Shown: one piece after another, positions 4,086-45,442 of the stretch
How positions within the stretch are numbered: position 1 is the first letter of the stretch
Layout: every line of letters begins with the position of its first letter
DNA from: a virus
Taxonomy: Duplodnaviria > Caudoviricetes
DNA: 48,387 nucleotides
Strand: one strand, 5' to 3'
Virus record (IMG/VR): IMGVR_UViG_3300017700_000797
Location: 1-48,387 of that record
The notes under the pieces: model-generated
Told to the model about the DNA's origin: nothing
What the model saw: the letters and a program-made list of their open reading frames with translations, nothing else
Database searches by the model: none
Translations under genes and position numbers: made by a program

Positions 4086-4691
4086 ATGAAAAACTTTCAC
4101 GCCATTTGTGCTTTGCCAGAATCGGAACTCTCCGCTTTGCGATTGCAGCTGCACCAGAACCCGCAGCTCTGGAACGCCAATCCAGCCCGACTGCGTCCTG
4201 GCTCCCCCCATGCCGGCACCAGCGACATCTGGGTGCGCGCGGCCGACGAAACAGCTTTCGCCAAGACCGGTGATTACACCGGCTTCACCGGTGAGCACGA
4301 ATCCATCTGGTATCCAGCCTACTATGCCTTGCCTGCGCTGCGGAAGTTGATCTTCGACCTCGCGCGTGGCGTGGAAGCGGAACGCATCGGCGACATCCTG
4401 CTGTGGCGCGTGCGCCCAGGGGAGCAAATCCTGCCGCATCGTGACGCCAGCTGGCACGTCGATCACTACGACAAGTTCAATATCTGCCTGGAAGCGAACT
4501 CCGAATGCGTATTCCGCTGGCCGGAGGACAACGAGAACCTGTACGAAAGTGCTGGCAGCGTCACTCGCTTCATCAACACCACTACCCACAAAGTCACCAA
4601 CCGCGGCGACACCGACTACATCGTTCTTGTTGTGTGCCTGCGCACGCATGATTACTCCCGCCGTTTCCAGGCCCCGCAGGTGGCAGCATGA
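4086..4691 (+). CDS. 2OG-Fe(II) oxygenase, aspartyl/asparaginyl beta-hydroxylase-like
   Basis: HxD...H facial triad: PGEQILPHRD ... FINTTTHKVTNRGDTD. Confidence 0.7.
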   Translation: MKNFHAICALPESELSALRLQLHQNPQLWNANPARLRPGSPHAGTSDIWVRAADETAFAKTGDYTGFTGEHESIWYPAYYALPALRKLIFDLARGVEAERIGDILLWRVRPGEQILPHRDASWHVDHYDKFNICLEANSECVFRWPEDNENLYESAGSVTRFINTTTHKVTNRGDTDYIVLVVCLRTHDYSRRFQAPQVAA

Positions 4692-16723: not shown

Positions 16724-17043
16724 ATTTTATTCTCCTGTGCAATGAGTGGATTGACGAGACTGGCGATCTGTCGACAGACCCCAGCAAATTCCTTTACAAA
16801 GGCTTCGTTAGCTGTTATCTTTACATCAGCCGCGTCAAGGTCCCATTGTAGGTTGTTAATTTCACTGCGATGGTTGGCTTCCATAGCGTCCATTTGACAC
16901 TCAAGTTCCTTGAGGTCATCTGATTCCCGATCAATAAGGAAGCGGCTCCGTTCCATTAGTTCTTGTTGCGCCGCTTTGTCGTCCGGTGTAACTGCCAACC
17001 AGCGACCTAGTTCAGCATTGGACAAGCGATTGTAGATCATCAC
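16720..17043 (-). CDS. Hypothetical coiled-coil protein
   Basis: 107 aa, overlapping stop/start with both neighbours. Confidence 0.6.
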   Translation of the reverse strand: MMIYNRLSNAELGRWLAVTPDDKAAQQELMERSRFLIDRESDDLKELECQMDAMEANHRSEINNLQWDLDAADVKITANEAFVKEFAGVCRQIASLVNPLIAQENKI

Positions 17044-18440
17044 ATCCCCATCAATGACTGCAGTTCCTTGGCCATGCGATCACCATCCGCCGCCGTACCA
17101 TGATTCACAGTATCCGCAGCCACGATCGAATCCAGGTTCTGCATCCGGCTATGGATCATGCTGAAATACTCCGGGTTCAGTTCCAACACCGTTGCTTCGC
17201 ACTTGTACTTGTGGCAGGCCGGGACGAGCGTACCGGAGCCGGCGAATGAGTCCAGGACTTTGTCCCCGGCCCGCACGCTCCGAACGAGCAATTGCTCGAA
17301 CAGCTCCACGGGTTTCTGCGCGCCATGCGTCATGTTGGCGTCGGCGTAGGAGGTGAGCACATCGGGGTAGATCGCGGTGACGGGCTTCTTGCCCTTGATC
17401 GCGTAGAGCAACGTCTCGTATTGGCGGCGCGGCCCCTCAAACGGCAGCGGCACGCGACCCGAGCCGGGCTTCGTGCAAATGAACGGCGTACGGAACACGT
17501 ACCAGCCAGCGGCCTGCATCATGCGTTTCAACTCGTGGAAGTTGTCGATGTCGCAGAACACGTAGGCGTGCGCTTGCGGCTTGGCAATGCGGAAGGAGAG
17601 TGGGCACCACGCCTCCATCAGGGCTTTCCAGTGGTCGTAGTCGTCCTTGTAGTGGTGTTCGTTGTTGGTCAGGCGCCCGCCGCCGCCATCGCCGAAGGTA
17701 TCTGCGCCCATGCCGTATGGCGGGTCCGTGAGGATGACGTCGTAGTAGCCTGCGTCGTGCGCGGCCATCCACGTGAGACAGTTAACATTGTGCGCTTTGT
17801 GCACGGAAGCGTTGAAGGTAGTGCCGACAGCGGCAGCGTTTTCAATGTTCTTTTGCTGCGCTTCTTGCTTCTTGATGATCTTGTAGGCTTCGTTGACATC
17901 TTTCGCTTTCGCAACTGCGGGATCGTGAAGGAACTTTGCTACAACAATCTCGCGGCGAGTGGCTTCCTGGAAAGAGCCGTCGGAACGGCCTTTGACTTCA
18001 ATGGCTGTGTCAGCCACGGAATGTACACGGCCTTCGGACTGCGCTTTGGCGCTGCGAATGCGGTGCAGCTTCGCCATGGCATTGCTGGACTCTTGCCACG
18101 TCAAGTCCTTGCGACGGATGTTTTCTTCGAGCTCGGCTTCTTCCGCTTCGAGTGCCGAGAGCTCCCCCAAGGTCACGTAGGGGATCATGCCTTCCGGCAC
18201 CAGCTGGTTGTTGTAGCGGAAGCTGCCGGCGAGTGCCCAGATGTTGTCGATGGCACGGATGCGGGTTTCGCCTGCGACGAGGATGAGCTTCCCACCTTCT
18301 TCACGCATGACAGGGGCGTGCAGCAGACCTTTGGTTTCGATCCCGGTCGACATTTCCTGAATCTTTACCGGATCGAATTCTTTGCGCTGGCGGTCGGGGC
18401 GAATGACGATGGCTGCGCGAGGGGCGAATTGCATTTGCAT
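17040..18440 (-). CDS. ParB-like CTPase/HTH domain fused to an N6-adenine/N4-cytosine DNA methyltransferase
   Basis: RQRKEF, GLLHAP, LVAGETRIRA, ELEENIRRKDL (ParB boxes); DPPY, HGAQKP, VLDSFAGSGT (beta-class amino-MTase). Confidence 0.9.
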   Translation of the reverse strand: MQMQFAPRAAIVIRPDRQRKEFDPVKIQEMSTGIETKGLLHAPVMREEGGKLILVAGETRIRAIDNIWALAGSFRYNNQLVPEGMIPYVTLGELSALEAEEAELEENIRRKDLTWQESSNAMAKLHRIRSAKAQSEGRVHSVADTAIEVKGRSDGSFQEATRREIVVAKFLHDPAVAKAKDVNEAYKIIKKQEAQQKNIENAAAVGTTFNASVHKAHNVNCLTWMAAHDAGYYDVILTDPPYGMGADTFGDGGGGRLTNNEHHYKDDYDHWKALMEAWCPLSFRIAKPQAHAYVFCDIDNFHELKRMMQAAGWYVFRTPFICTKPGSGRVPLPFEGPRRQYETLLYAIKGKKPVTAIYPDVLTSYADANMTHGAQKPVELFEQLLVRSVRAGDKVLDSFAGSGTLVPACHKYKCEATVLELNPEYFSMIHSRMQNLDSIVAADTVNHGTAADGDRMAKELQSLMGM

Positions 18441-31512: not shown

Positions 31513-32178
31513 TTACTCGGCGGCGCCGGCTTCTGCCAGTTCGTCCTGGACTTCCGCTTCGCCGGCCGTTGCTGGCGACACGCCCAGACCGTTCAGCAGT
31601 GCATCGCTGTCGATCGGATTCGCCTTGACCTTGGTGCTGCGGGCTGCCTTTTCGGCTTCCAGGCGCTTGACGATCGGGTCGAGCTTCGGATTGCCGCGCA
31701 GGGCGATCTTCTGCGCATGGGTCTTGTTCGACAGGAACAGCATCACGTCGGCCTTGGACTTGCCGGTCATTTCGATCAGGGCTTTGCACAGGATCGAGGC
31801 GCCAGCCATACCATTCGTGTCGCGGGTCGCGTTCCACTCGCCCTGTTCCAGGCGAATCAGCAGCGCGTCGATGGCAACGACGCAATCTTCGACGTCAACC
31901 ACGCCTGCGATCTCGTCGCCCAGCTTCTGCTCGGCGCCGTGGGCAGCGAACTTGTGCAGCAGGGTGGCGACGATGTTGTAAGTGCGGGTTTCGCCGTTGA
32001 CGAAGTCAATGCGGACGACGACTTCGCCTGCGTTGGGTTCGTCAGCACCGGCGATGGTGTGCGACTTGATCATTTTGCGTTTGCCCGCGAATTCGACATC
32101 GCGGCCGTCATCCATGCGGACGGTGATGGAAGGGGTTTTGACTGCTACGGCTGCGGCGTTCGTGGTATCGGTGGACAT
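31513..32178 (-). CDS. Hypothetical protein, paralog of 36787-37485
   Basis: F.NGE, HG..QKL.D, WN..R, LR.NP, DSDALL shared with 36787-37485. Confidence 0.8.
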   Translation of the reverse strand: MSTDTTNAAAVAVKTPSITVRMDDGRDVEFAGKRKMIKSHTIAGADEPNAGEVVVRIDFVNGETRTYNIVATLLHKFAAHGAEQKLGDEIAGVVDVEDCVVAIDALLIRLEQGEWNATRDTNGMAGASILCKALIEMTGKSKADVMLFLSNKTHAQKIALRGNPKLDPIVKRLEAEKAARSTKVKANPIDSDALLNGLGVSPATAGEAEVQDELAEAGAAE

Positions 32179-32775: not shown

Positions 32776-32993
32776 TTTGGGGGCCCTTCACGAACAGTTT
32801 GGATCACTGCCCACACAATTACCCATGGCCAGAAAATTCCACCGACAACCAGATAGAAAAAGACCTTGCCAAAGCTTTCGTGTTCCTGCAGTAGTTCTTG
32901 CCGAGCCACTTCAGGTGTTGTGATCCATGCGTCTAACATATAGCCAGTGTACACCACTACGCCGGCAAGGTACACAGCAAGAAAGATGTTCAT
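32772..32993 (-). CDS. Small membrane protein
   Basis: Two hydrophobic segments, IFWPW. Confidence 0.6.
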   Translation of the reverse strand: MNIFLAVYLAGVVVYTGYMLDAWITTPEVARQELLQEHESFGKVFFYLVVGGIFWPWVIVWAVIQTVREGPPK

Positions 32994-33610
32994 GGTTGCT
33001 TCCCCTTCGGCAGTGGTCTGCCGTATTTGTTATCCGGTCCCAGGTACTCCCGATACGGCACTTTCTTCCCCTTAACCCGAAACCCCCACGTGCCCTGATA
33101 CTTCCACGTGATGAACAGCGTCCACACTCCGCCCTCGCTGACGCTGACGATGTTATGGAACATTCTGAGGTTGAGCTTGCAAGTGTCGCCGGGCAGACGC
33201 AAGTGGTGTTCCGTGTAGTCGCGGATATGGGCTTGGACTTGCTCTTCCCATGGCCAGCCTGTTATTTGCTCTTCCCAGCCTGCCAACCGCTCTTCCCGGT
33301 ATGACCCGCGCAGGATTACTGTGCGAGCTTCCCATGGATGGTCGTGCAGATGCGGATCGAGGTCTTGCCGCATGATGTGATGCAGGCGCACACTCGGAAA
33401 CCAGCGACGCCAGCCCTTGCGTGTGCCGCCTTTGCCGAAGCTGTAACGGTTGAGCAGCCAGAATCGGCGCATGTAGTAGGTGCCGTCAGGGTCCTGCAGG
33501 TGCGCGTAAGGGGATTCGCTGCTGTGGGTGATGAGCCAGTCCACCACGCGAGGGCGGCAGAGCTGACGCGCAAGCTGTTGCCACAGCCATTCCGTGAGCC
33601 GGGCGATCAT
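32990..33610 (-). CDS. Cupin-like phage protein
   Basis: RLHHIMRQD.DPHLHDHPW...GSYRE...FHNI...VWTLFIT. Confidence 0.7.
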   Translation of the reverse strand: MIARLTEWLWQQLARQLCRPRVVDWLITHSSESPYAHLQDPDGTYYMRRFWLLNRYSFGKGGTRKGWRRWFPSVRLHHIMRQDLDPHLHDHPWEARTVILRGSYREERLAGWEEQITGWPWEEQVQAHIRDYTEHHLRLPGDTCKLNLRMFHNIVSVSEGGVWTLFITWKYQGTWGFRVKGKKVPYREYLGPDNKYGRPLPKGKQP

Positions 33611-33786
33611 GCTGACTGCTCCAAGACGCAGCCGATGAGGCCACAAAGGCAGAGGCCGAGGCCGACGACAGCCCCTGTGGTAGCGATGAGTTGGCCGGTG
33701 GACTCTGCCGGGAGCATGAGTTCCAGGATCAAAAAGCCGACAGCGGTTAGGCCGCCGATTGCTATGAGGAGTTCAGATTCGGGCAT
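33607..33786 (-). CDS. Small two-TM membrane protein (59 aa, not in ORF track)
   Basis: AAGGAG RBS; MPESELLIAIGGLTAVGFLIL...; ATGA overlap with downstream gene. Confidence 0.55.
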   Translation of the reverse strand: MPESELLIAIGGLTAVGFLILELMLPAESTGQLIATTGAVVGLGLCLCGLIGCVLEQSA

Positions 33787-33827: not shown

Positions 33828-34100
33828 TTAGAGGGTGTCAGCAGCAGCTTTCGCTTCCCGCTCTTGCTTGCGCAGCAGGCCACGACGGTCAAGTTCTCTG
33901 CGGCTGCGCTGGCGGGCGATGGCGTGTTCGATGGTCTGGCCCGGCTTCCACTCTGCGAGGGCGAAAGCAAGTTCCGTAGGGGTCGCAGTGGCGCGTGCCC
34001 ATGTGGAAGCGGCGAGGAAGGCCGAGCGGAAGAGCATGATGTCCTGCGGGGCGTAGGCTTGGCTGGTAGGGGCGGGGGCCGGAACAGTATCAGATGCCAT
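33828..34100 (-). CDS. Hypothetical protein
   Basis: MASDTVP...RRELDRRG. Confidence 0.5.
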   Translation of the reverse strand: MASDTVPAPAPTSQAYAPQDIMLFRSAFLAASTWARATATPTELAFALAEWKPGQTIEHAIARQRSRRELDRRGLLRKQEREAKAAADTL

Positions 34101-34641
34101 GATCACGCTGTAGCTGACGAATGGATTCCCGCAGGCCAATCAATGAATTGCCGTTTACGGTTAAAGCGGCTTCTGTGAGTTGCCAAGACTTCCGCACATT
34201 TCCCAATTCTTCCTTGATTCGGGCCAGTTCCTTTTGCGCCCCGGAAACGACTGTGTCCATGTGGGCGTTTTTGTCATTGGCGGCTTTGAGCTGTCCCATC
34301 AGCACGTCGATCTGCCTCTGTGCGTAGTCCAGCTTGCTCTGTTCCTTTTGCTGAGTCTCTTCCGCGTCCTTTGCTCGGTAGGCCTTGGCATAGTGACAAG
34401 CGCAGTTAGGAAGATAACTAGCACTGACACCAACTGTGCCCAGACATTCTTGCCATGTGGGGGTCGGTGTGGGCTGAGACATCTGAGCCATCTGTGCGGG
34501 CTTTTGAAGTGGAGCTGCCCTGTAAGCAGAGCCAAATATCTTCAGGTAGACTCCGCCGGACGCCAGTAACTGACCCGAATTGCACGGAGTCAGGGAATAG
34601 TGCCCGGGGGGTAATCCCCCCATTTCTAGTTCGAGTTTCAT
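34090..34641 (-). CDS. Hypothetical coiled-coil protein
   Basis: Start at MKLELEM; long heptad region. Confidence 0.5.
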   Translation of the reverse strand: MKLELEMGGLPPGHYSLTPCNSGQLLASGGVYLKIFGSAYRAAPLQKPAQMAQMSQPTPTPTWQECLGTVGVSASYLPNCACHYAKAYRAKDAEETQQKEQSKLDYAQRQIDVLMGQLKAANDKNAHMDTVVSGAQKELARIKEELGNVRKSWQLTEAALTVNGNSLIGLRESIRQLQRDHGI

Positions 34642-34673
34642 GTTAAGCCTTATAAGAAAAGTGGAAAGTGATG

Positions 34674-34880
34674 TCAGCCATGGCTCAGTGGCAGCCCGAG
34701 AGTCGTGCCTTCCGACAGGCCGCACAGGTAGAAAGTGCCGTTGAGAGTAAAGCCGAACATGCCAGCCGGGACTTCGCTCGGAGCTTCCATTGGCTGTGCC
34801 ATATAGCTGCCAGCTGGAAGGTCGAGCGGGAAGTTAGCCATCATTGCGGATGGGACGTCAGTTGCTGTTGCAGTAGTCAT
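34674..34880 (-). CDS. Hypothetical protein
   Basis: ~68 aa, GAGG RBS. Confidence 0.45.
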   Translation of the reverse strand: MTTATATDVPSAMMANFPLDLPAGSYMAQPMEAPSEVPAGMFGFTLNGTFYLCGLSEGTTLGLPLSHG

Positions 34881-34914
34881 AAGTAGCCTCATGGGGTCAG
34901 TTTGTCGAGTTATG

Positions 34915-34944
34915 CCCTCACGTTACAATGGAGTAATGTGCGCA
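34915..34944. repeat. Dispersed palindrome copy 10
   Basis: CCCTCACGTTAC-aatgga-GTAATGTGCGCA. Confidence 0.9.
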
Positions 34945-35454
34945 CAAAACCCATTATCCATGCCCCGGCTCAGTAGTCACGCCCTTTTGCCGCAGCTCCT
35001 ACCCACTAGCAATAGCAACGTGCACACGCCCGCACACGTAGGCACACGCCCGCGTCATCCACGCGTGTCATGCCCCCGCGTGTACAGTAGGTTTTAAAAA
35101 CAGCCCCCACCCCCAATTCCGGCCTCCGGTTTGGCTCCTAACTATTGGCCGGTATCAGGCGCGAGCGCAGCTGACGCGCACAACAAACCACAATTGGCTG
35201 CGGCGCGGGAGGGTGATTGCTCGGGCCACGGCACGGCGACACGGGGTGCATTTGGCCGTGGGGAGTTGTCCAGGGGGCGCGGCTGGGGGTGAGTTTTCGG
35301 GGCATGGAATAGAGGCCCGTGGCGGCGTTTGTGTGCTGGGGGTAGGCGAGGGTAGCCGGAGCCTCCCGTTCGTGCCGTGGCGGTGCCATTCCGGGCCGGG
35401 AAACCGATTCCGCGATCCGGCCAATCCCCCGATTCCGCTCCCCAGCCCGTTCCC

Positions 35455-35856
35455 CTAGTAATGGAACTGCAACCCCACTCTCCTATTATGCAAAATCACA
35501 GCCACCTGCAGCGCAATCACCCCGTACTGGAACCCGGAGCGCGGCCAGCCAGCCGGGAGCGCGCGGGCGGTGCCATAAGCGAGCACGGCGCTGGTTAGGA
35601 AGTAGGCACTGATACGGCGATCGGAGGGCTGGGGGCCGAGAATGGGGTTGTGTTCGTACAGGCCAGGGATGCGGGTTATGCTGCGGGTTTGGGCATAGTC
35701 CGCGTAGAGGGTGAGGGTTAGGGCGGTTTGCCGGGCAGTGTCGGCATCGGACCAATCCCGGCTGGTGCTGGCGCGGGGGAGGTCGGGGAGGAGCTGGGCG
35801 GTGGCGAGACATGGCCACAGCAAAAGCAGGGCGGCGAGGGTTTTTGAGGTGGCCAT
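35455..35856 (-). CDS. Exported/membrane protein with signal peptide
   Basis: LAALLLLWPCLATA signal; D..QT, EHNPILG; aromatic C-terminus. Confidence 0.65.
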   Translation of the reverse strand: MATSKTLAALLLLWPCLATAQLLPDLPRASTSRDWSDADTARQTALTLTLYADYAQTRSITRIPGLYEHNPILGPQPSDRRISAYFLTSAVLAYGTARALPAGWPRSGFQYGVIALQVAVILHNRRVGLQFHY

Positions 35857-35868
35857 GGCAGGGTTCCT

Positions 35869-36111
35869 TTAGGCGGGGCGTGAGAGTTTGGTCAGCAGAG
35901 TGTTCAGGGCATCCGCAACTTCCTTTTGTTCCGCGAGCATGACGACGAGGGACAAGAGGTTGACAACGATTTGCGCTTCCGGAGTGTCGCGGGTGAGCAT
36001 CTTGGCATAGTCATTGAGGAATGGTTCAGTGGAACCGGGAGCGAAGATTTCGATTTCGGCTGCAACGAAAGTAACAACACGGCGCAGCATTGGGGTTTCA
36101 CGAGTGGACAT
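35869..36111 (-). CDS. Hypothetical protein
   Basis: AAGGA RBS before ATG 36111. Confidence 0.55.
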   Translation of the reverse strand: MSTRETPMLRRVVTFVAAEIEIFAPGSTEPFLNDYAKMLTRDTPEAQIVVNLLSLVVMLAEQKEVADALNTLLTKLSRPA

Positions 36112-36139
36112 AGCGGGTTCCTTTAGAGGGTTGCGAGAG

Positions 36140-36155
36140 TGTTCCACGTGGAACA
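36140..36155. promoter_or_regulatory. parS: parS site 1 (canonical chromosomal type)
   Basis: TGTTCCACGTGGAACA, perfect palindrome. Confidence 0.9.
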
Positions 36156-36165
36156 CTGGCCCGCG

Positions 36166-36390
36166 TTAGCGTTTGCCGTTAGGCGTCGTCGGAGTGGCGA
36201 GATAGTACACTGCGGCTTCGATGCTCCAGCCACGTGCCCGGAGATAGCGCGCCGCTTTGTACGTGCCGAGAGTCCGACCGATATGGCGGGCGTGGGCAGG
36301 GACGGATTTGCCCTTGGCATTGTGCGTGCACAGGCCGTTAGGAGTCCATACGCCGGGCGCTAGGCCGTTGCTGTAGGGGATGCGGGGCAT
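36166..36390 (-). CDS. Hypothetical protein
   Basis: GTYKAARYLRARGWSIEAA; AAGGAG RBS. Confidence 0.6.
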   Translation of the reverse strand: MPRIPYSNGLAPGVWTPNGLCTHNAKGKSVPAHARHIGRTLGTYKAARYLRARGWSIEAAVYYLATPTTPNGKR

Positions 36391-36391
36391 G

Positions 36392-36703
36392 CTAGGCTCC
36401 TTCCGGTGGCTGTGGGGCGGCGTTAGCCATAGCGACCCGAGTAGCGGCGAGGTGCTCATTCACGGCGTCGTAATGGTGCAGGGCGTATTCGCTGATTGCG
36501 GCGCGCAACGTGACGAAGGTTTCGTTGGCAAGTGCCATGTTGCCCTGTTCACATGCGCCGTGGAAAACACGAAGCAGAGTGACAACGTGTAAAGGGCTGA
36601 CAACAGGGTGAGGTACGATGTCGAGAGGGAATCCGGGGAGAGGGGGCTCCGGGGTGAAAGCTGAACGGGGCGTAAGCGGGTGATTGGTACGGGTAATAGG
36701 CAT
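36392..36703 (-). CDS. Hypothetical protein
   Basis: AAGGAG RBS; packed in early operon. Confidence 0.5.
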   Translation of the reverse strand: MPITRTNHPLTPRSAFTPEPPLPGFPLDIVPHPVVSPLHVVTLLRVFHGACEQGNMALANETFVTLRAAISEYALHHYDAVNEHLAATRVAMANAAPQPPEGA

Positions 36704-36739
36704 GATGAGTCTCCTTTAGATTAGTGAGAGGGAGTTCTA

Positions 36740-36769
36740 TGCGCGCGTTACAGTGGAGTAATGTGCGCA
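36740..36769. repeat. Dispersed palindrome copy 11
   Basis: GTTCTA-TGCGCGCGTTAC-agtgga-GTAATGTGCGCA-TAGAAC. Confidence 0.95.
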
Positions 36770-36786
36770 TAGAACCCGGTTCGGAA

Positions 36787-37485
36787 TTAGGCCTTGGCCG
36801 AATCGTTGCTTTTACCCTTGCCACGTGGCTTGGCCTTAGGCGCGGGGAACGATGGGACAATAGGGGCTTCCGGGGCAGGTGTCAATTCCTCTTCCGGTTC
36901 CTCTTCCGGTTGCTCTTCCGAGCCGTCGTCGGCCTCAACGTCCATGCCGCCCCCGACCATCAGGGTATCGAGCAATGCATCGGAGTCTACGCCCGTGGTA
37001 TTCGCCGTTTCCACCTGCAATTGCGCGATGATTTCCACGATCCGTGGATTCTTCCGCAGGGAGGCCACTTCATCCTTGGAACGGGCTTCGAGCCATGCCA
37101 TAGCATCGGCGCGGCTTTTGCTGGTGAGGCGCATAACGGCGCGCAAGAGGAGGCCGCCCTTGTTGCCACCCCCTTCGCCGTTGCCACGGGCCTTGTTCCA
37201 CGTGGAACCTTCCGGCAGCGTGATGCGGTTATAGACGTCGAGCACGGCATTGTATTTGTCGGTGATGGTCGCGGTGCGCCCGGTGTCAGGATCGCGGGCG
37301 ATGGCTGCGGCATCGATGAGCTTTTGCTTCAAGCCGTGCATCATCGCCGCGTGCTGGATTTCCGGCGAGAGGGAGAGGGAATCAACGGTCAGGCGCTCGC
37401 CGTTGGCGAACGTGAGGGAGAGGATAGGGCCAGCGATTTCGGCGCTGACTGCGGTTGCGAGTTTTTTGTTTTGTGCGGTTGCCAT
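36787..37485 (-). CDS. Hypothetical protein, paralog of 31513-32178
   Basis: Shared motifs (see paralog); acidic then basic tail. Confidence 0.8.
   Translation of the reverse strand: MATAQNKKLATAVSAEIAGPILSLTFANGERLTVDSLSLSPEIQHAAMMHGLKQKLIDAAAIARDPDTGRTATITDKYNAVLDVYNRITLPEGSTWNKARGNGEGGGNKGGLLLRAVMRLTSKSRADAMAWLEARSKDEVASLRKNPRIVEIIAQLQVETANTTGVDSDALLDTLMVGGGMDVEADDGSEEQPEEEPEEELTPAPEAPIVPSFPAPKAKPRGKGKSNDSAKA
37194..37209. promoter_or_regulatory. parS: parS site 2 (inside CDS)
   Basis: TGTTCCACGTGGAACC. Confidence 0.85.
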
Positions 37486-37579
37486 GATTGAGCCTCTTTA
37501 GTGGTTACGGTTATGCGCATGTGCGCTGGGAAGAATATCCCCGTTAGGCTCGCGTTATGAGCTGCCTAACGGTGAGAAT

Positions 37580-37789
37580 CTATTCAATGCCGAGAGTGTC
37601 TTGTGCCAGCCCGATAGGCATAGCGCCATAGGCACGGCCCCCGATAGAATCTTGGATGTGCGCCGCCCAATAGGAGGTGGCATAGTCGCGCTCATCGTCT
37701 GTAAGCTTTGGCAAACATACGTCGATAGCCTTTTGGATACTGGCTTGACATGCGAGGATAGCGCGGGCCGTTTTCTTGGTCATTGGCAT
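37580..37789 (-). CDS. Hypothetical protein
   Basis: AGGAG RBS, 69 aa. Confidence 0.55.
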   Translation of the reverse strand: MPMTKKTARAILACQASIQKAIDVCLPKLTDDERDYATSYWAAHIQDSIGGRAYGAMPIGLAQDTLGIE

Positions 37790-37817
37790 GATTGATGCTC
37801 CTAATAAGGGGGTGAAA

Positions 37818-38120
37818 TTACCACGTAGGGAAGTCGTTTGCCTCAATTGCCGGGAATGGGTTCTCCCCGTTGCGCCAGCCGCTTTGCCCATCCGGCATCA
37901 AGTACCATTTGTCATCCGACGGCGAGAGGGCATATACCCAGCCGTGGTACTCGAAATGTGGCACACGTTGATTGTGACTATGCCCGGCGAAAGCCCCGGC
38001 AACCGTGCCATCGGTGCCATCGCCCCATATGACCATATCATAGGCCAGCTTGGCTTTGTACGTGCGGTACTCAATGCCGAAATCGGCGAGTACACGGGTT
38101 TTGAAATCGGCTTCAAGCAT
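37818..38120 (-). CDS. Hypothetical protein
   Basis: GGAG RBS, 100 aa. Confidence 0.55.
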   Translation of the reverse strand: MLEADFKTRVLADFGIEYRTYKAKLAYDMVIWGDGTDGTVAGAFAGHSHNQRVPHFEYHGWVYALSPSDDKWYLMPDGQSGWRNGENPFPAIEANDFPTW

Positions 38121-38171
38121 GATGCGTGCTCCTATTTGTTAGCGGGGGCAGGATTGTCCCGGTTAGCCTCA

Positions 38172-38187
38172 TGTTTCACGTGGAACA
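38172..38187. promoter_or_regulatory. parS: parS site 3
   Basis: TGTTTCACGTGGAACA, nested in a longer CGGTTAGCC...GGCTAACCG inverted repeat. Confidence 0.9.
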
Positions 38188-38219
38188 CTGGCTAACCGTG
38201 AGAGTCCAGCGGTTCGGGT

Positions 38220-38522
38220 TTAGCCTAGTGTGGTGCGGCGATGGGCTTCGTATTCCAAATGACGGTGTTTGGTGCCTTCGATGAGGGCATAGCCGTAGTC
38301 GGTCAGGTCATACGCTTCGCCGTCCCAGCCAATAATCCCGGCTTTGGAGAGGGTATCCAAGGCAACGAGGCTTGCGTAATGATGGGCACCGATAGTCAGG
38401 CATTCGGCAAACGCCGGTTCGGTGCATTGAGTCGAGCACTCGGCATGGATCGCGTAGAGTTCCTGCGGGCCGCATGCGGCGATGAGGTCGAAGATGCATT
38501 CCGTGGCGTAGTAGTGTTTCAT
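38220..38522 (-). CDS. Hypothetical protein (possible winged-helix-like C-terminus)
   Basis: LDTLSKAGII...YDLTDYG; AGGAG RBS. Confidence 0.55.
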   Translation of the reverse strand: MKHYYATECIFDLIAACGPQELYAIHAECSTQCTEPAFAECLTIGAHHYASLVALDTLSKAGIIGWDGEAYDLTDYGYALIEGTKHRHLEYEAHRRTTLG

Positions 38523-38608
38523 GGGGGGAGACTCCTAACGGTTAATGAGGTGGACAATCGGACGGCTGAGAGTCCAGCCGGTTACAGCACATGCGATGAG
38601 GACGAGGA

Positions 38609-38776
38609 TCATGCCACGACTACGCTAGCAACCAGTTGCACGGCGTCATAATCAATGCGTGCGGCGCATGTGTGCCCATTCAATGCCGCCCATGCCGTAA
38701 CACGGTCAGCGGCATGGATGCATACATTAGTGATGAATTCGCCGTCGAGGTAGAGGTCAAAACTAAATGCGTACAT
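38609..38776 (-). CDS. Hypothetical protein (first early gene)
   Basis: GGAG RBS, ATG 38776, downstream of a sigma70-like promoter. Confidence 0.5.
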   Translation of the reverse strand: MYAFSFDLYLDGEFITNVCIHAADRVTAWAALNGHTCAARIDYDAVQLVASVVVA

Positions 38777-38821
38777 GGCTGACTCCGGTTCGGTGAGGCA
38801 CGTCGTGTGCCGATGAAATTC

Positions 38822-38849
38822 ATTGTACGCCGATGGTTGAGGGTTGCAA
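38822..38849 (-). promoter_or_regulatory. Putative early sigma70 promoter
   Basis: Minus strand TTGCAA-N16-TACAAT. Confidence 0.6.
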
Positions 38850-38907
38850 GCGGTTTCAATCAAATAGATGCAAATAGTTTCCAGCCTCTCCGGCGGGGTA
38901 TGTTTTG

Positions 38908-38937
38908 CCCTCACATTACTCCGGTGTAATGTGCGCG
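38908..38937. repeat. Dispersed palindrome copy 12
   Basis: CCCTCACATTAC-tccggt-GTAATGTGCGCG. Confidence 0.9.
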
Positions 38938-39489
38938 CCGAACTACCCCGACACTCTCCAGGCTACCGAAAACCGGCCAGCCGCGTCAAACCGGTTTGGA
39001 TGGCTCGTCACGGCACGCTGGCTCAGGTTGATAGGAACATACCAGCCGCTCGGCGTTCGTGCCACCACGGCGTTTTCCCCCTTTCAGGCACGCATCTTGC
39101 TAGTCGGCGCAACTCTTCTATAAGAGTCAGCCTCACTCTTCTATAAGACTGCTGTTGCTATGGTCAGCGGCTCAGCAATAGAGCGCGGCTATCGTTGCGG
39201 GCCGAGTCCAGGCTGCGTAGCGGTGTTGTCAGAGTGATAACGAAATGGGTAAAGCGGGGCGCGGCTGGCTACGCCGACAACGAGCACGGGTGGGAATCAG
39301 GAGGGGAGGGCGATGAGGGATGAGGGGGCATTGTACTATGTGCACCACAGTTCCCTACCCAATATCCCGCCCGCGCACGTGTACCCATGCGAATACTGTA
39401 CCGAGTGGTATTCGGTCAATGCTATCGATTCCTCGCAGGTGATAGTCGAGGTATGCTATCGATAGTAGGCAGGTGATAGCTGGAAGCTA

Positions 39490-39505
39490 TGTTCCACGTG
39501 GAACC
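39490..39505. promoter_or_regulatory. parS: parS site 4
   Basis: TGTTCCACGTGGAACC. Confidence 0.85.
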
Positions 39506-39648
39506 CTTGGCTACGATTGGGATTGCCTATCGCGCTAGCGCCATGTTCGCGAAATGAGCGTTATGTCAAATGCACGCTGGTGCGTTATCGATAGCTATTG
39601 CCAATCGCCGAGGGGCTGAGTCGAGAGTAGCAGGCACGCTCCTTGCTA

Positions 39649-39706
39649 GGGGGGGGGGGGGGGGGGGGCCTGGGAATCTGGAATTGGAGGGGGGGGGGGG
39701 GGGGGG
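39649..39706. repeat. Two poly-G tracts (~20 and ~18 G) separated by 20 bp
   Basis: Directly visible homopolymers; exact lengths are unreliable. Confidence 0.8.
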
Positions 39707-39818
39707 AAACTCAGGCCGCGCAAATGTACGTAATACACCTCGGGAGATTTTTGCAAATTTTCCACAAGAGTGTTGTCACTTTGTCTACTCCCTCCTCTCC
39801 TCAGTCCTGCTAGTTCTG

Positions 39819-39848
39819 CCCTCACGTTACTAGCGAGTAATGCGCGCG
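39819..39848. repeat. Dispersed palindrome copy 13
   Basis: CCCTCACGTTAC-tagcga-GTAATGCGCGCG. Confidence 0.9.
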
Positions 39849-40022
39849 CCGAATGGTTATTAAGGAACAGCAATTAGCAGTAGGGACGGCGCATGGCTTA
39901 TACCCGTTAGTATTACTGAGCACTTTGCTAGTCGCTACTTCCTCGTGTCAGTTCACGTGTTGCTGTTAGTTGCAGTCAAAGGAACTATCATTGCATCATA
40001 CCACAGCGAGCAGGAGAACGAT

Positions 40023-40385
40023 ATGGCAGGAGCACAGCAAATCGACAAGGTGAAGCACATTCACGAGTGCATCATCAATGACATGATTGCGGAGCCCACT
40101 GTCACGCAAGTGGAGCTGTGCGAGCGCTTTGGCTACACGCGGGGCTGGATGTCGCGGGTTATTAACAGTGACAGCTTCCAGGCACGGCTGGCGCAACGCC
40201 GGCAGGAGCTACTCGATCCCGACCTCAAGGCGAAGTTGAACCAGCGGCTGGAAGCAGTGGTTACGCAGAGCATGAACCATATCCAGACGCGGCTGAACTC
40301 CTCGGAAGCCAGTGCTGACTTGGCACTGGCGAGCCTCGGAGTAGCTGCGGCCGGGCTTGGCGTGTTGAACCCACCGAAGCGGTAA
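40023..40385 (+). CDS. HTH-like protein, putative terminase small subunit (paralog A)
   Basis: TQVELCERFGYTRGWMSRVINSDSFQ; AGGAG RBS; upstream of terL. Confidence 0.6.
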   Translation: MAGAQQIDKVKHIHECIINDMIAEPTVTQVELCERFGYTRGWMSRVINSDSFQARLAQRRQELLDPDLKAKLNQRLEAVVTQSMNHIQTRLNSSEASADLALASLGVAAAGLGVLNPPKR

Positions 40386-40389
40386 AGCC

Positions 40390-40983
40390 ATGTCTACGAC
40401 AATTGAAGAGAACTCGGACGCGCTGCTGGACATCCTGCTTGGTGGGGAAGTGCCAGTTGCAGCAGCGTCTCCGGTGTTCACCTCGAAGGCAACTGCGAAA
40501 GCCACTGCCGAGCGCAAACCTGTCTACCATCCCGATGCGATGGTGCAGCTCATGGTCGAGCACCCTGAGTACACGCACGAAGAGTTCGCAGCGTACTTCG
40601 GCTACAAGCAGTCCTGGTTCGCCGGGGTGCTGATCAGCGACCGTTTCCAGAAAGCGCTGGAGCCGCGCCGGCACGAGATCAGCAACCCGATGCTAACCGG
40701 CACAATGCAAGATCTCTTTCGCTCGATGACGGTGCAATCCCTGGTGGTGCTGCAGCAGCGGCTGGAAGATCCAAAGGTGAGCGAGGACTTGATTATCAAA
40801 GCGATTACGGCTGGGGTGAAGGCTTTGGGCATGGGCACGCCGGGCATGGCGCTGGAAGTTCCAGTGGCTCCGCCGACGCTCGACCAACTCGCCAGCCGGC
40901 TGTCCAAGCCGAAGGCAATTGTTGCCAGTACCGAGGCCCGTGACTGGACGATCGAAGCTTCCCTCAATGAGATTCCGCGCTAA
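40390..40983 (+). CDS. HTH-like protein, putative terminase small subunit (paralog B)
   Basis: THEEFAAYFGYKQSWFAGVLISDRFQ; abuts terL. Confidence 0.6.
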   Translation: MSTTIEENSDALLDILLGGEVPVAAASPVFTSKATAKATAERKPVYHPDAMVQLMVEHPEYTHEEFAAYFGYKQSWFAGVLISDRFQKALEPRRHEISNPMLTGTMQDLFRSMTVQSLVVLQQRLEDPKVSEDLIIKAITAGVKALGMGTPGMALEVPVAPPTLDQLASRLSKPKAIVASTEARDWTIEASLNEIPR

Positions 40984-42449
40984 TGGCCCTCAAGCAAACA
41001 AAAATCACCCCGGAGCTCCTTGAGGGCTTCGCTGCACATTACATCAGCCCTCAGTATGACGATGCGCAGCCGACGCCGCAGTTCCACCGGGATTGCTGGG
41101 GGCTGTACTGTCAGCCGCTGCTGCAATGTGGGGTTGCTGCTCCTCGTGGCCATGCGAAGACCACTGCGCTTACTACGGATTACATCCTTGCCGAAATCCT
41201 CTTCCGGAGTGAGGAGTACGTCATCCTCGTAAGCTCCAATGAGGAAATGGCGATTGAGCTCTTGGGGGATATCACCCGTGAACTCAGCGACAATGAAGAC
41301 CTCATCGAAGACTTCCAAATCAAGGGCTTCCTCACATGTGCCAAGACGGATATCATCGTGGAATTCAAAGATGGGCACCAGTGCCGAATCCTGGCTCGCG
41401 GAAGCGGTCAGAAAATGCGGGGCCGCAAATGGCGGGGTAAGCGCCCCGGACTCATTGTCTGTGATGACCTTGAAGACGATGAACAAGTCGAGAACATTGA
41501 GCGTCGCAATAAGTTTCGGCGATGGTTCTATCGGGCGCTTAAGCCTGCACTGCGCAAAGGTGGTCGACTGCGAATTCATGGCACTATTCTGCACGAGGAC
41601 TCGCTGCTAGCGCGGCTGATGAAGGACAAGACCTGGCATACGCAGTTCTACCGTGCGCACGCTGGGTTCGATGACTTCACCGACATCCTGTGGCCGGAAC
41701 AGTTCAGCGAAGAGCGTCTGCGCGGGATTCGTCAGTCCTTCATCGAGCAGTTCGACTCCAGCGGCTACTCGCAAGAGTACCTCAACGATCCCTTCGACAA
41801 TAGTGAAGCCTACCTGCGCAAGGATGACTTCATCGAACAAAACGACGACGAGAAAGAGCTGCCGAAAAAGATCAACGTCGGTATCGACTTCGCCATTAGC
41901 AAGAAACAAAAAGCGAATCGTACTTCCATGACTGTCGGAGGGCAGTGCGCTGGCAACCTCCTTCATATCGAGGACCAGCACGTAGGCCGCTGGGACTTGC
42001 TCGAAATTGTCGAAGAGATGTTTGATCTCCAGGCTCGCTATGAGCCGGAGCTGTTCATTGTCGAGGACGGTATTATCTGGAAAGCCATCTCCCCCGTGCT
42101 CAACGCGGAGATGCTGAAACGTGACATCTACCTGAACATCCAAGCCATCCTCCCAATCAATGACAAGAAAACCAACGGCCGCTCTTTTCAGAAGCGGATG
42201 AAAGCAGGAGCTTGCCGCTTCAACAAGCAAGGGACATGGTACGCCGGGTATGAGGCTGAGCTCTTGCGCTTTACCGGCGACTCCGATGCTGTGCTGGACG
42301 ATCAATTCGACTCCACTGCGTTGCTGAGCCGGGGATTGGAAATGGCCAAGATCCTCGAAGAAGACGACTTCCTCGATGAAGATGAACTCTACAGCCGTCG
42401 CCGGGATAAGCCGGAAGCCTCAGGGCGCAACAAATACACTGGCTACTAA
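40983..42449 (+). CDS. terL: Terminase large subunit
   Basis: Walker A APRGHAKTT, Walker B LIVCDDLE, GTILH, SQEYLN, GIDFA, DDQFDS nuclease motifs. Confidence 0.93.
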   Translation: MALKQTKITPELLEGFAAHYISPQYDDAQPTPQFHRDCWGLYCQPLLQCGVAAPRGHAKTTALTTDYILAEILFRSEEYVILVSSNEEMAIELLGDITRELSDNEDLIEDFQIKGFLTCAKTDIIVEFKDGHQCRILARGSGQKMRGRKWRGKRPGLIVCDDLEDDEQVENIERRNKFRRWFYRALKPALRKGGRLRIHGTILHEDSLLARLMKDKTWHTQFYRAHAGFDDFTDILWPEQFSEERLRGIRQSFIEQFDSSGYSQEYLNDPFDNSEAYLRKDDFIEQNDDEKELPKKINVGIDFAISKKQKANRTSMTVGGQCAGNLLHIEDQHVGRWDLLEIVEEMFDLQARYEPELFIVEDGIIWKAISPVLNAEMLKRDIYLNIQAILPINDKKTNGRSFQKRMKAGACRFNKQGTWYAGYEAELLRFTGDSDAVLDDQFDSTALLSRGLEMAKILEEDDFLDEDELYSRRRDKPEASGRNKYTGY

Positions 42450-44656: not shown

Positions 44657-44864
44657 GCAAGTTCGGGAGTGGCGTCAACTCGACGCTACGAAAGCGTTCC
44701 TCGCAGACCTGGAAAACCGGGTGGAGGAAGGTAAAGACACCTGGGCCCGTCAAGGGTATCTGCAGGAGACAGTAGAAGGAACGGCGATTGCGAATGCAAA
44801 AGCCCTGGGCGGGATGGAAATCCTGCAGACATTGATCAGTTTCCTAAAAGGGGAGGAAGAATGA
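44622..44864 (+). CDS. Hypothetical protein
   Basis: EWRQLDATKAFL; small post-portal gene. Confidence 0.65.
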   Translation: MQNQPAPAVKPEQVREWRQLDATKAFLADLENRVEEGKDTWARQGYLQETVEGTAIANAKALGGMEILQTLISFLKGEEE

Positions 44865-45442
44865 GCCATTACGAAAAAGTGACAATTACGAGCAACGGCG
44901 TGAAGGCGGAAGGGGCTGAAATCGGGGAGCTTATCCTCAGTCAGCCTCTGGCCACCTCCATGTTTCAGCGGGAAGTGTTTAACCTGCTCGGCCGTGAGCC
45001 TGTCTCTGAAGATTGGGTACGTGCGCCGGAAATGACGGCTTACCATGAAGGCGGCTTCATGGTAACTGGACGTGTCCAGCGTCTTCGCAAGGGGCATCCC
45101 GGCTGGCGTGCTCGCAAGGGCCCGCAGACCACGAATCAAAGCGGTTTCCGTGCAACCGGCCACCGCCTGCTCTTGCTGCCAGACCCGCTCGAAACGACCA
45201 CGGCTGGCGGCTTGATCCTCTCCGCCAAGACCGTTGCCCAAGACGAATCCAAATGCGTCTGGGCCACCGTGGTGGAAATCGGCTGCGACGCCTGGTCCGA
45301 CAAGGGCACCGATTACTGCGATGTGGGCGACCGTGTCCTGATCGGCGAGTTCACCGGCAAGTTCCATGTCAGCCCACGCGACGGCGTCAAGTACCGGTTC
45401 GTGAACGATCTGGACATTATTACGCCGCTGGTTAGCGAGTAG
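44861..45442 (+). CDS. GroES-like co-chaperonin with N-terminal extension
   Basis: GHRLLLLP...TTAGGLIL...ATVVEIG...VGDRVLIGEFTG...YRFVNDLDII. Confidence 0.8.
   Translation: MSHYEKVTITSNGVKAEGAEIGELILSQPLATSMFQREVFNLLGREPVSEDWVRAPEMTAYHEGGFMVTGRVQRLRKGHPGWRARKGPQTTNQSGFRATGHRLLLLPDPLETTTAGGLILSAKTVAQDESKCVWATVVEIGCDAWSDKGTDYCDVGDRVLIGEFTGKFHVSPRDGVKYRFVNDLDIITPLVSE

Follow-up and report, generated by a model that had tools for sequence, protein, structure and literature searches.

The 48,387-nucleotide stretch of phage DNA analysed here in full (IMG/VR virus record IMGVR_UViG_3300017700_000797, hereafter the window) carries four parS sites of the host chromosomal type, grouped within 3.4 kb. 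Chromosomal ParB binds the parS consensus, spreads from it as a cytidine triphosphate (CTP)-dependent clamp, engages ParA and loads SMC. The reading we favour, with a probability of roughly one half, is that this phage borrows the ParB of its host to tether and partition its own genome. One component of that reading, that host ParB binds these sites in vivo, we judge to be quite probable.

The exact core GTTYCACGTGRAAC occurs at 36140, 37194, 38172 and 39490 and has no further copies in the window, and each of the four strandless 16-mers differs by 0 to 2 mismatches from TGTTNCACGTGAAACA, which PMC7022226 gives as the conserved chromosomal parS consensus. Site 1 (36140 to 36155, TGTTCCACGTGGAACA) falls between two small early genes, with a ribosome-binding site directly downstream. 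Site 2 (37194 to 37209, TGTTCCACGTGGAACC) lies within a coding sequence on the minus strand (36787 to 37485), across the codons G-S-T-W-N-K, site 3 (38172 to 38187, TGTTTCACGTGGAACA) forms the top of a conserved hairpin, and site 4 (39490 to 39505, again TGTTCCACGTGGAACC) sits in a non-coding gap with the early promoter on one side and G tracts on the other. At up to three mismatches to the consensus the window holds only one further match, at 31844 (three mismatches), which lacks the CACGTG core. The original prediction, made from the letters of the window, had named these four positions, found none elsewhere, placed the second inside a coding sequence and recognised the host-type consensus; all of this is confirmed.

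Chance accounts poorly for such a set. Counted by strand, nine matches at up to three mismatches were observed against a shuffle mean of 0.91, with none of 100 shuffles reaching nine, and Markov models of orders 0 to 4 predict 0.0006 to 0.0017 exact cores in the window against the four seen, in keeping with the earlier rough estimate of well under 0.01. Captured host origin DNA would be another trivial source, but parA, parB, gidA and rsmG are absent beside the sites and the flanks consist of phage genes common to relatives. With only about 0.001 cores expected and recurrence across lineages also disfavouring chance, either origin is extremely improbable, and what speaks for it is confined to site 2, half of which is imposed by the protein since W96-N97 is invariant in the family of the encoded product. 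With this protein constraint and a synonymous change that breaks the core in a relative, site 2 is the weakest case of the four.

The gene that holds site 2 (36787 to 37485, minus strand; 232 amino acids, 364 homologs) proved to be the landmark around which parS sites cluster in relatives, and it is used here as the family marker. Its product has no hits in Pfam, PHROG or NCBIfam and no PDB fold matches at E<=0.001. The family was sampled as 160 loci (80 of the 116 viral and 80 of the 224 metagenome marker matches, the best in each case), which fall into 92 clusters at 90% marker protein identity. The exact core is present in 16 of these 92 clusters, counting the window's own, and in 13 of the 53 with enough flanking sequence, at 1 to 4 sites per lineage and always within -2.0 to +1.8 kb of the marker start. 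A search of 50 whole records, picked on purpose as long ones plus known positives, returned 15 sites in 12 records, all of them the marker-adjacent ones, and none for the control. Five control motifs gave 0 or 1 hits each in 1.72 Mb against 18 perfect parS sites; a sixth was left out, being two letters from parS and recounting the same 18 (19 hits). The two palindromes ranked highest when the family loci were scanned without bias were the parS cores, and no substitute palindrome near the marker stood out in parS-free relatives. Searching for GCCAG plus parS added one member (L470, 35% identity), and MW202489 has, directly upstream of its marker, a core with one mismatch. A paralog of the marker at 31513 to 32178 (minus strand), about 30% identical to marker homologs, is also kept in relatives.

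A quick tree was built without bootstrap from 55 markers, of which 15 are parS-positive; on it the trait requires nine state changes, at least four of them forced by strong branches, and is clustered relative to shuffles. The flanks of the sites differ between lineages, and three lineages place parS at three distinct spots within the marker reading frame (GSTWNK, VSRET and VPRET). As these sequences have it, parS is repeatedly gained or lost within the family, at one landmark. Recurrence, confinement near the marker and absence from most relatives together mark the trait as selected, positional and optional. The claim that the sites are under selection is supported both by the excess over chance and by relatives that keep the motif or independently place it in the same region.

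The position of the sites within the genome gives this pattern its context. The record is a complete, podovirus-like virus genome with a 123-nt end overlap, from a sequencing run labelled freshwater metagenome. One arm encodes terminase (large subunit at 40983 to 42449, plus strand; phrog_38, E 2.9e-65), an SU10-type portal, head-closure and ejection proteins and lysozyme; this late arm points away from the early arm, on which parS lies together with small unknown genes, a Dda-like helicase, a Sak4-like protein, a ParB-methyltransferase fusion and a UDG-PolA polymerase. The divergence lies in a non-coding gap at about 38.8 to 40.0 kb. Inside it are a predicted sigma70-type early promoter (38822 to 38849, minus strand; TTGCAA-16-TACAAT, by consensus match only), which heads the leftward string of small genes, and two strandless G tracts of 20 and 18 nt (39649 to 39668 and 39689 to 39706), a candidate genome-end region. 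The sites lie at this early/late divergence, as expected from the suggestion that they neighbour an early promoter. From the gene layout we infer that the end with the small genes is the early one and the first to enter the cell.

What the phage lacks is also informative. Six-frame searches of the window found no matches to the ParA-type model PF13614, the tyrosine integrase PF00589, the resolvase PF00239 or the ParB helix-turn-helix domain PF17762, and the test for a canonical ParB, TIGR00180, scored 21.9 bits against a cut-off of 58.45. The first three of these results agree with the earlier description of an apparently non-integrating phage without recognisable ParA. Nor is there a parA-parB operon beside the sites, given that no ParA model matched and that the ParB-like gene some 18 kb away is the methyltransferase fusion.

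That fusion is the obvious internal candidate for reading parS, and it had been offered as one. Encoded at 17040 to 18440 (minus strand), next to the DNA polymerase, it joins a ParB N-terminal domain to a beta-class N6/N4 DNA methyltransferase and is a strongly conserved core gene of the family. In this alternative, the sites would load the phage's own ParB-methyltransferase, which would slide from parS to methylate incoming DNA. Hhalign relates the protein to a host ParB at 95% probability, its N-terminal part has the GxxR motif (AGETRIRA in the window, mostly AGERR in relatives), its middle region is predicted to be helix-turn-helix-like, and DNA-bound Noc appears among its fold matches. Its distribution points the other way: among 42 records the gene is found in 37, including all 33 that are near-complete, the majority of them parS-free, and its middle region looks alike by eye in parS-bearing and parS-free phages (in an alignment from which the G009 row was left out). 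According to PMC7383237, ParB reads parS through R173 and G201..R204. Judged from the sequence and a structure model of pLDDT 76, the residue of the fusion that corresponds to R173 is H in one alignment register and D in the other, and the GHAR motif (G201..R204) is absent in both; the fusion also has no match to HTH_ParB (PF17762). Loading of the fusion at these sites is therefore improbable, and the protein is likely a poor candidate reader of parS. Phage fusions of a ParB-CTPase fold to an N6/N4 methyltransferase are already described as frequent in PMC12704722, and the window gene has the same architecture; in this family, presence of the fusion is not tied to presence of parS. The R173 and G201..R204 contacts do exist in a host ParB taken from one metagenome-assembled genome (MAG), and host ParB is the likely reader.

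The host is probably a non-sporulating Proteobacterium, with weak indications towards the Betaproteobacteria, a group not known for endospore formation. Two family contigs are binned in betaproteobacterial MAGs, of Aquaspirillum and Rhodoferax (two confirmed among 73 pattern hits). Exact cores number eight and four on these MAGs, and the four adjoin parAB/gidA. A DNA search of 401 genomes from the family of one MAG gave weak hits in 29 genomes and no CRISPR spacer, the best short hit (31 bp, 97%) lying in coding-like sequence, and lysozyme searches, with one genome left unscored, pointed to no host.

If host ParB is the reader, it would load at parS on the early, probably first-entering end soon after entry, and would then tether and position the phage genome via host ParA. 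The benefit would be that a lone incoming genome is positioned and, where lysis comes late because the host grows slowly, is still inherited by one of the daughter cells. Phage phi29 offers the parallel, doing likewise for the prespore; there, host Spo0J at five parS sites is used for prespore segregation, as PMC2731898 describes.

Host ParB could also bind without any role in partition. One possibility is transcription control, in which spreading clamps would damp the early operon and sense the state of the host. All sites flank or lie in the early operon, several of them 14 to 75 nt upstream of a start codon, and PMC7022226 reports that ParB of P. aeruginosa at intergenic parS3/parS4 represses adjacent genes. 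However, overlap with a sigma70 match (at least 9 of 12) was seen for 0 of 24 family sites, as against 35 of 960 random nearby positions, and window sites 3 and 4 are about 640 bp from the predicted early promoter; we regard transcription control as unlikely but not negligible. Somewhat less probable again is a decoy, with hundreds of replicated parS copies titrating host ParB, stalling chromosome segregation or division, or diverting SMC to phage DNA. A decoy needs site number only, copy number does vary from 1 to 4, and depletion of ParB stops division in some hosts (PMC7022226). It needs no fixed position, yet all family sites are in the early region, and those of several cultured phages are near record ends.

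Several observations weigh against tethering and partition through host ParB. Most relatives are parS-free, and positives make up only 4 of 31 near-complete records; one relative that is 91% complete (G003) carries no sites at all. The closest relative (L007/G001, about 71% identical over the parS stretch) keeps sites 1 and 3, both reading TGTTTCACGTGAAACA and changed at positions 5 and 12 only, towards a perfect palindrome, but the core of site 2 is broken there by the synonymous change ACG>ACA, and site 4 is missing both from this phage and from the next closest (L008). The proposed conservation of synonymous positions at 37194 accordingly did not hold up, and the broader proposal that relatives would share the sites stood in part: the same motif is kept or independently placed in the same region, while site 4 is absent from the two closest relatives and site 2 is weakened in the closest. 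Part of the clustering may simply reflect free space, because the early region that holds parS contains 27% of the window's intergenic 16-bp slots in 8% of its length. The two MAG-binned contigs carry no parS in the fetched loci, and such binning is weak host evidence. The physical genome end could not be located from contig depth, the difference (143 over 39224 to 39721 against 118 to 125 on the flanks, in contigs of one run) being too small for a terminal repeat. Finally, gene annotation recognised neither a repressor nor a plasmid-maintenance gene that would mark a carrier state.

Site 3 merits separate treatment, as its palindrome also takes part in a predicted RNA element of the early transcript. 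The hairpin (38160 to 38198, minus strand) consists of a 9-bp outer stem and a small A/GA internal loop, with the site on top, and a sister hairpin on the same scaffold but without parS stands upstream of the marker gene (37541 to 37572, minus strand). Folding is stronger than in shuffles for both (z = -3.2 for 38150 to 38210 and z = -4.1 for 37533 to 37588), and the outer stem shows compensatory changes across 12 aligned copies, in rows picked for having the scaffold. One might then suppose that the palindrome is only a hairpin top, part of a processing or stability element, and that its likeness to parS is accidental, as would suit site 3 and its orthologs, which cap a covarying stem. We consider this very improbable. 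Unrelated tops occupy the same scaffold in parS-free relatives (L141, L212 and L218) and in the window's own sister hairpin, and six of eight parS-topped copies carry a C-A mismatch on the transcribed strand, so pairing does not explain the parS letters. Most sites, moreover, are outside the scaffold, and sites 2 and 4 fold no more strongly than shuffles. Site 3 looks to have been written into the freely variable top of an older RNA element. The scaffold itself sits upstream of early genes throughout the family and is possibly an element for RNA processing or protein binding; an Rfam scan of 34000 to 41000 gave no matches at E<=1.

Partition sites on phage DNA are familiar from P1 and from mycobacterial parABS phages, which encode ParA and a cognate ParB together with their own centromere; the window phage differs in having host-type sites and no detected ParA. 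The principle at issue here is known from phi29. As PMC2731898 presents them, phi29 and Nf resemble the window phage as lytic-type phages without a partition system of their own that carry several parS sites of the chromosomal consensus. By contrast, the window phage probably has a non-sporulating host. Its sites are restricted to the junction of early and late genes, only some members of the family have them, and one forms part of an RNA hairpin. The chromosomal ParABS systems covered in PMC7022226 have the same 14-bp core in several copies within a few kilobases, some in coding sequence, as in host gidA; the window differs in having no parA or canonical parB in cis and in being a phage genome, not a chromosomal origin. 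In the full-text literature searched, which lacks most subscription papers, host-type parS on a lytic phage was found only for phi29/Nf, and no paper on such sites in lytic phages of Gram-negative hosts was found; PMC10286716 discusses a phage ParB-like gene only.

New here are a large uncultured family with repeated gain or loss of parS at one landmark, the evidence disfavouring the phage's ParB fusion as reader, and a parS site built into a hairpin. If host ParB does read the sites, the strategy would extend beyond the spore entrapment of the phi29 family to phages of Gram-negative bacteria, where there is no spore to explain it. It would then be a candidate mechanism for the positioning and inheritance of phages free of partition genes during stalled infections.

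Other viruses carry the motif as well. IMG/VR holds about 5,900 stretches with TGTTYCACGTGGAACM, and a control in which the central CG is swapped gives about 300; this excess of about 20-fold (both counts are estimates from partial scans) suggests a widespread trait. Among 124 sampled IMG/VR loci, 80 of them of at least 4 kb, none had a hit to the ParA, ParB, RsmG or GidA of one MAG at E<=1e-4, so the sampled viral loci are not fragments of host origins. A 40-nt query matched 123 records of a phage collection, phi29-family phages among them. Nine phage records were checked whole, five taken from these hits and four as protein relatives, and seven have parS (Mel-JY34 and VS-ABTNL-3 have none). 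The three sites of Salva fall inside its 3,973-bp terminal repeat, two of the three in REC are near record ends, the three of DSS3P8 fit into about 6 kb spanning the record junction, and Ochrobactrum phage OH has one in a 55-nt end repeat that may be an assembly overlap. In Alcaligenes phage QDWS535 a single site lies in the gap that separates the early genes from terminase, the same layout as window site 4, and Nf has two exact cores. The motif recurs near record ends in cultured phages of Alcaligenes, Stenotrophomonas, Pseudomonas, Ochrobactrum and Ruegeria. A tentative and on balance doubtful extension is that borrowing of the host centromere is common and repeatedly evolved in lytic phages whose hosts do not sporulate: with parS on the end that enters first, host ParB clamps would ratchet the entering DNA or tether it and then pass it on to ParA/SMC, allowing inheritance free of partition genes in a dormant carrier state. 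It is similarly speculative that the present family would illustrate repeated gain of this kind, which would extend even to sequence changes in an RNA hairpin top and in the end part of an early gene. Unrelated viral contigs were also seen with 3 to 6 parS cores in 300 to 500 bp, inside short repeats (L479:1396-1771, L489:59-548 and L485:1359-1668).

The gap between the arms has further features. A direct repeat, CTCTTCTATAAGA, occurs at 39113 to 39125 and 39136 to 39148, with related copies in L007 and L008, and is followed by a conserved block near 39225 to 39253, a candidate origin or packaging signal. The counterparts of the G tracts are G-rich in L007 and L008, and similar tracts lie upstream of the marker in several relatives.

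A second palindrome, of about 41 bp with the core RTTAC-N6-GTAAY and GC-rich arms, occurs 14 times across both arms, mostly between genes (484, 4031, 9281, 9686, 13735, 13955, 20338, 24634, 31324, 34923, 36748, 38916, 39827 and 45460), and accounts for every TTAC-N6-GTAA in the window. It is present in many relatives, parS-bearing and parS-free alike, and looks like the operator of a dimeric phage protein, for which the ParB-methyltransferase is one candidate. Three other genes may be mentioned: a GroES-like gene in the head module (44861 to 45442, plus strand), a hydroxylase-like gene in the tail module (4086 to 4691, plus strand) and a cysteine-dioxygenase-like gene in the early arm (32990 to 33646, minus strand).

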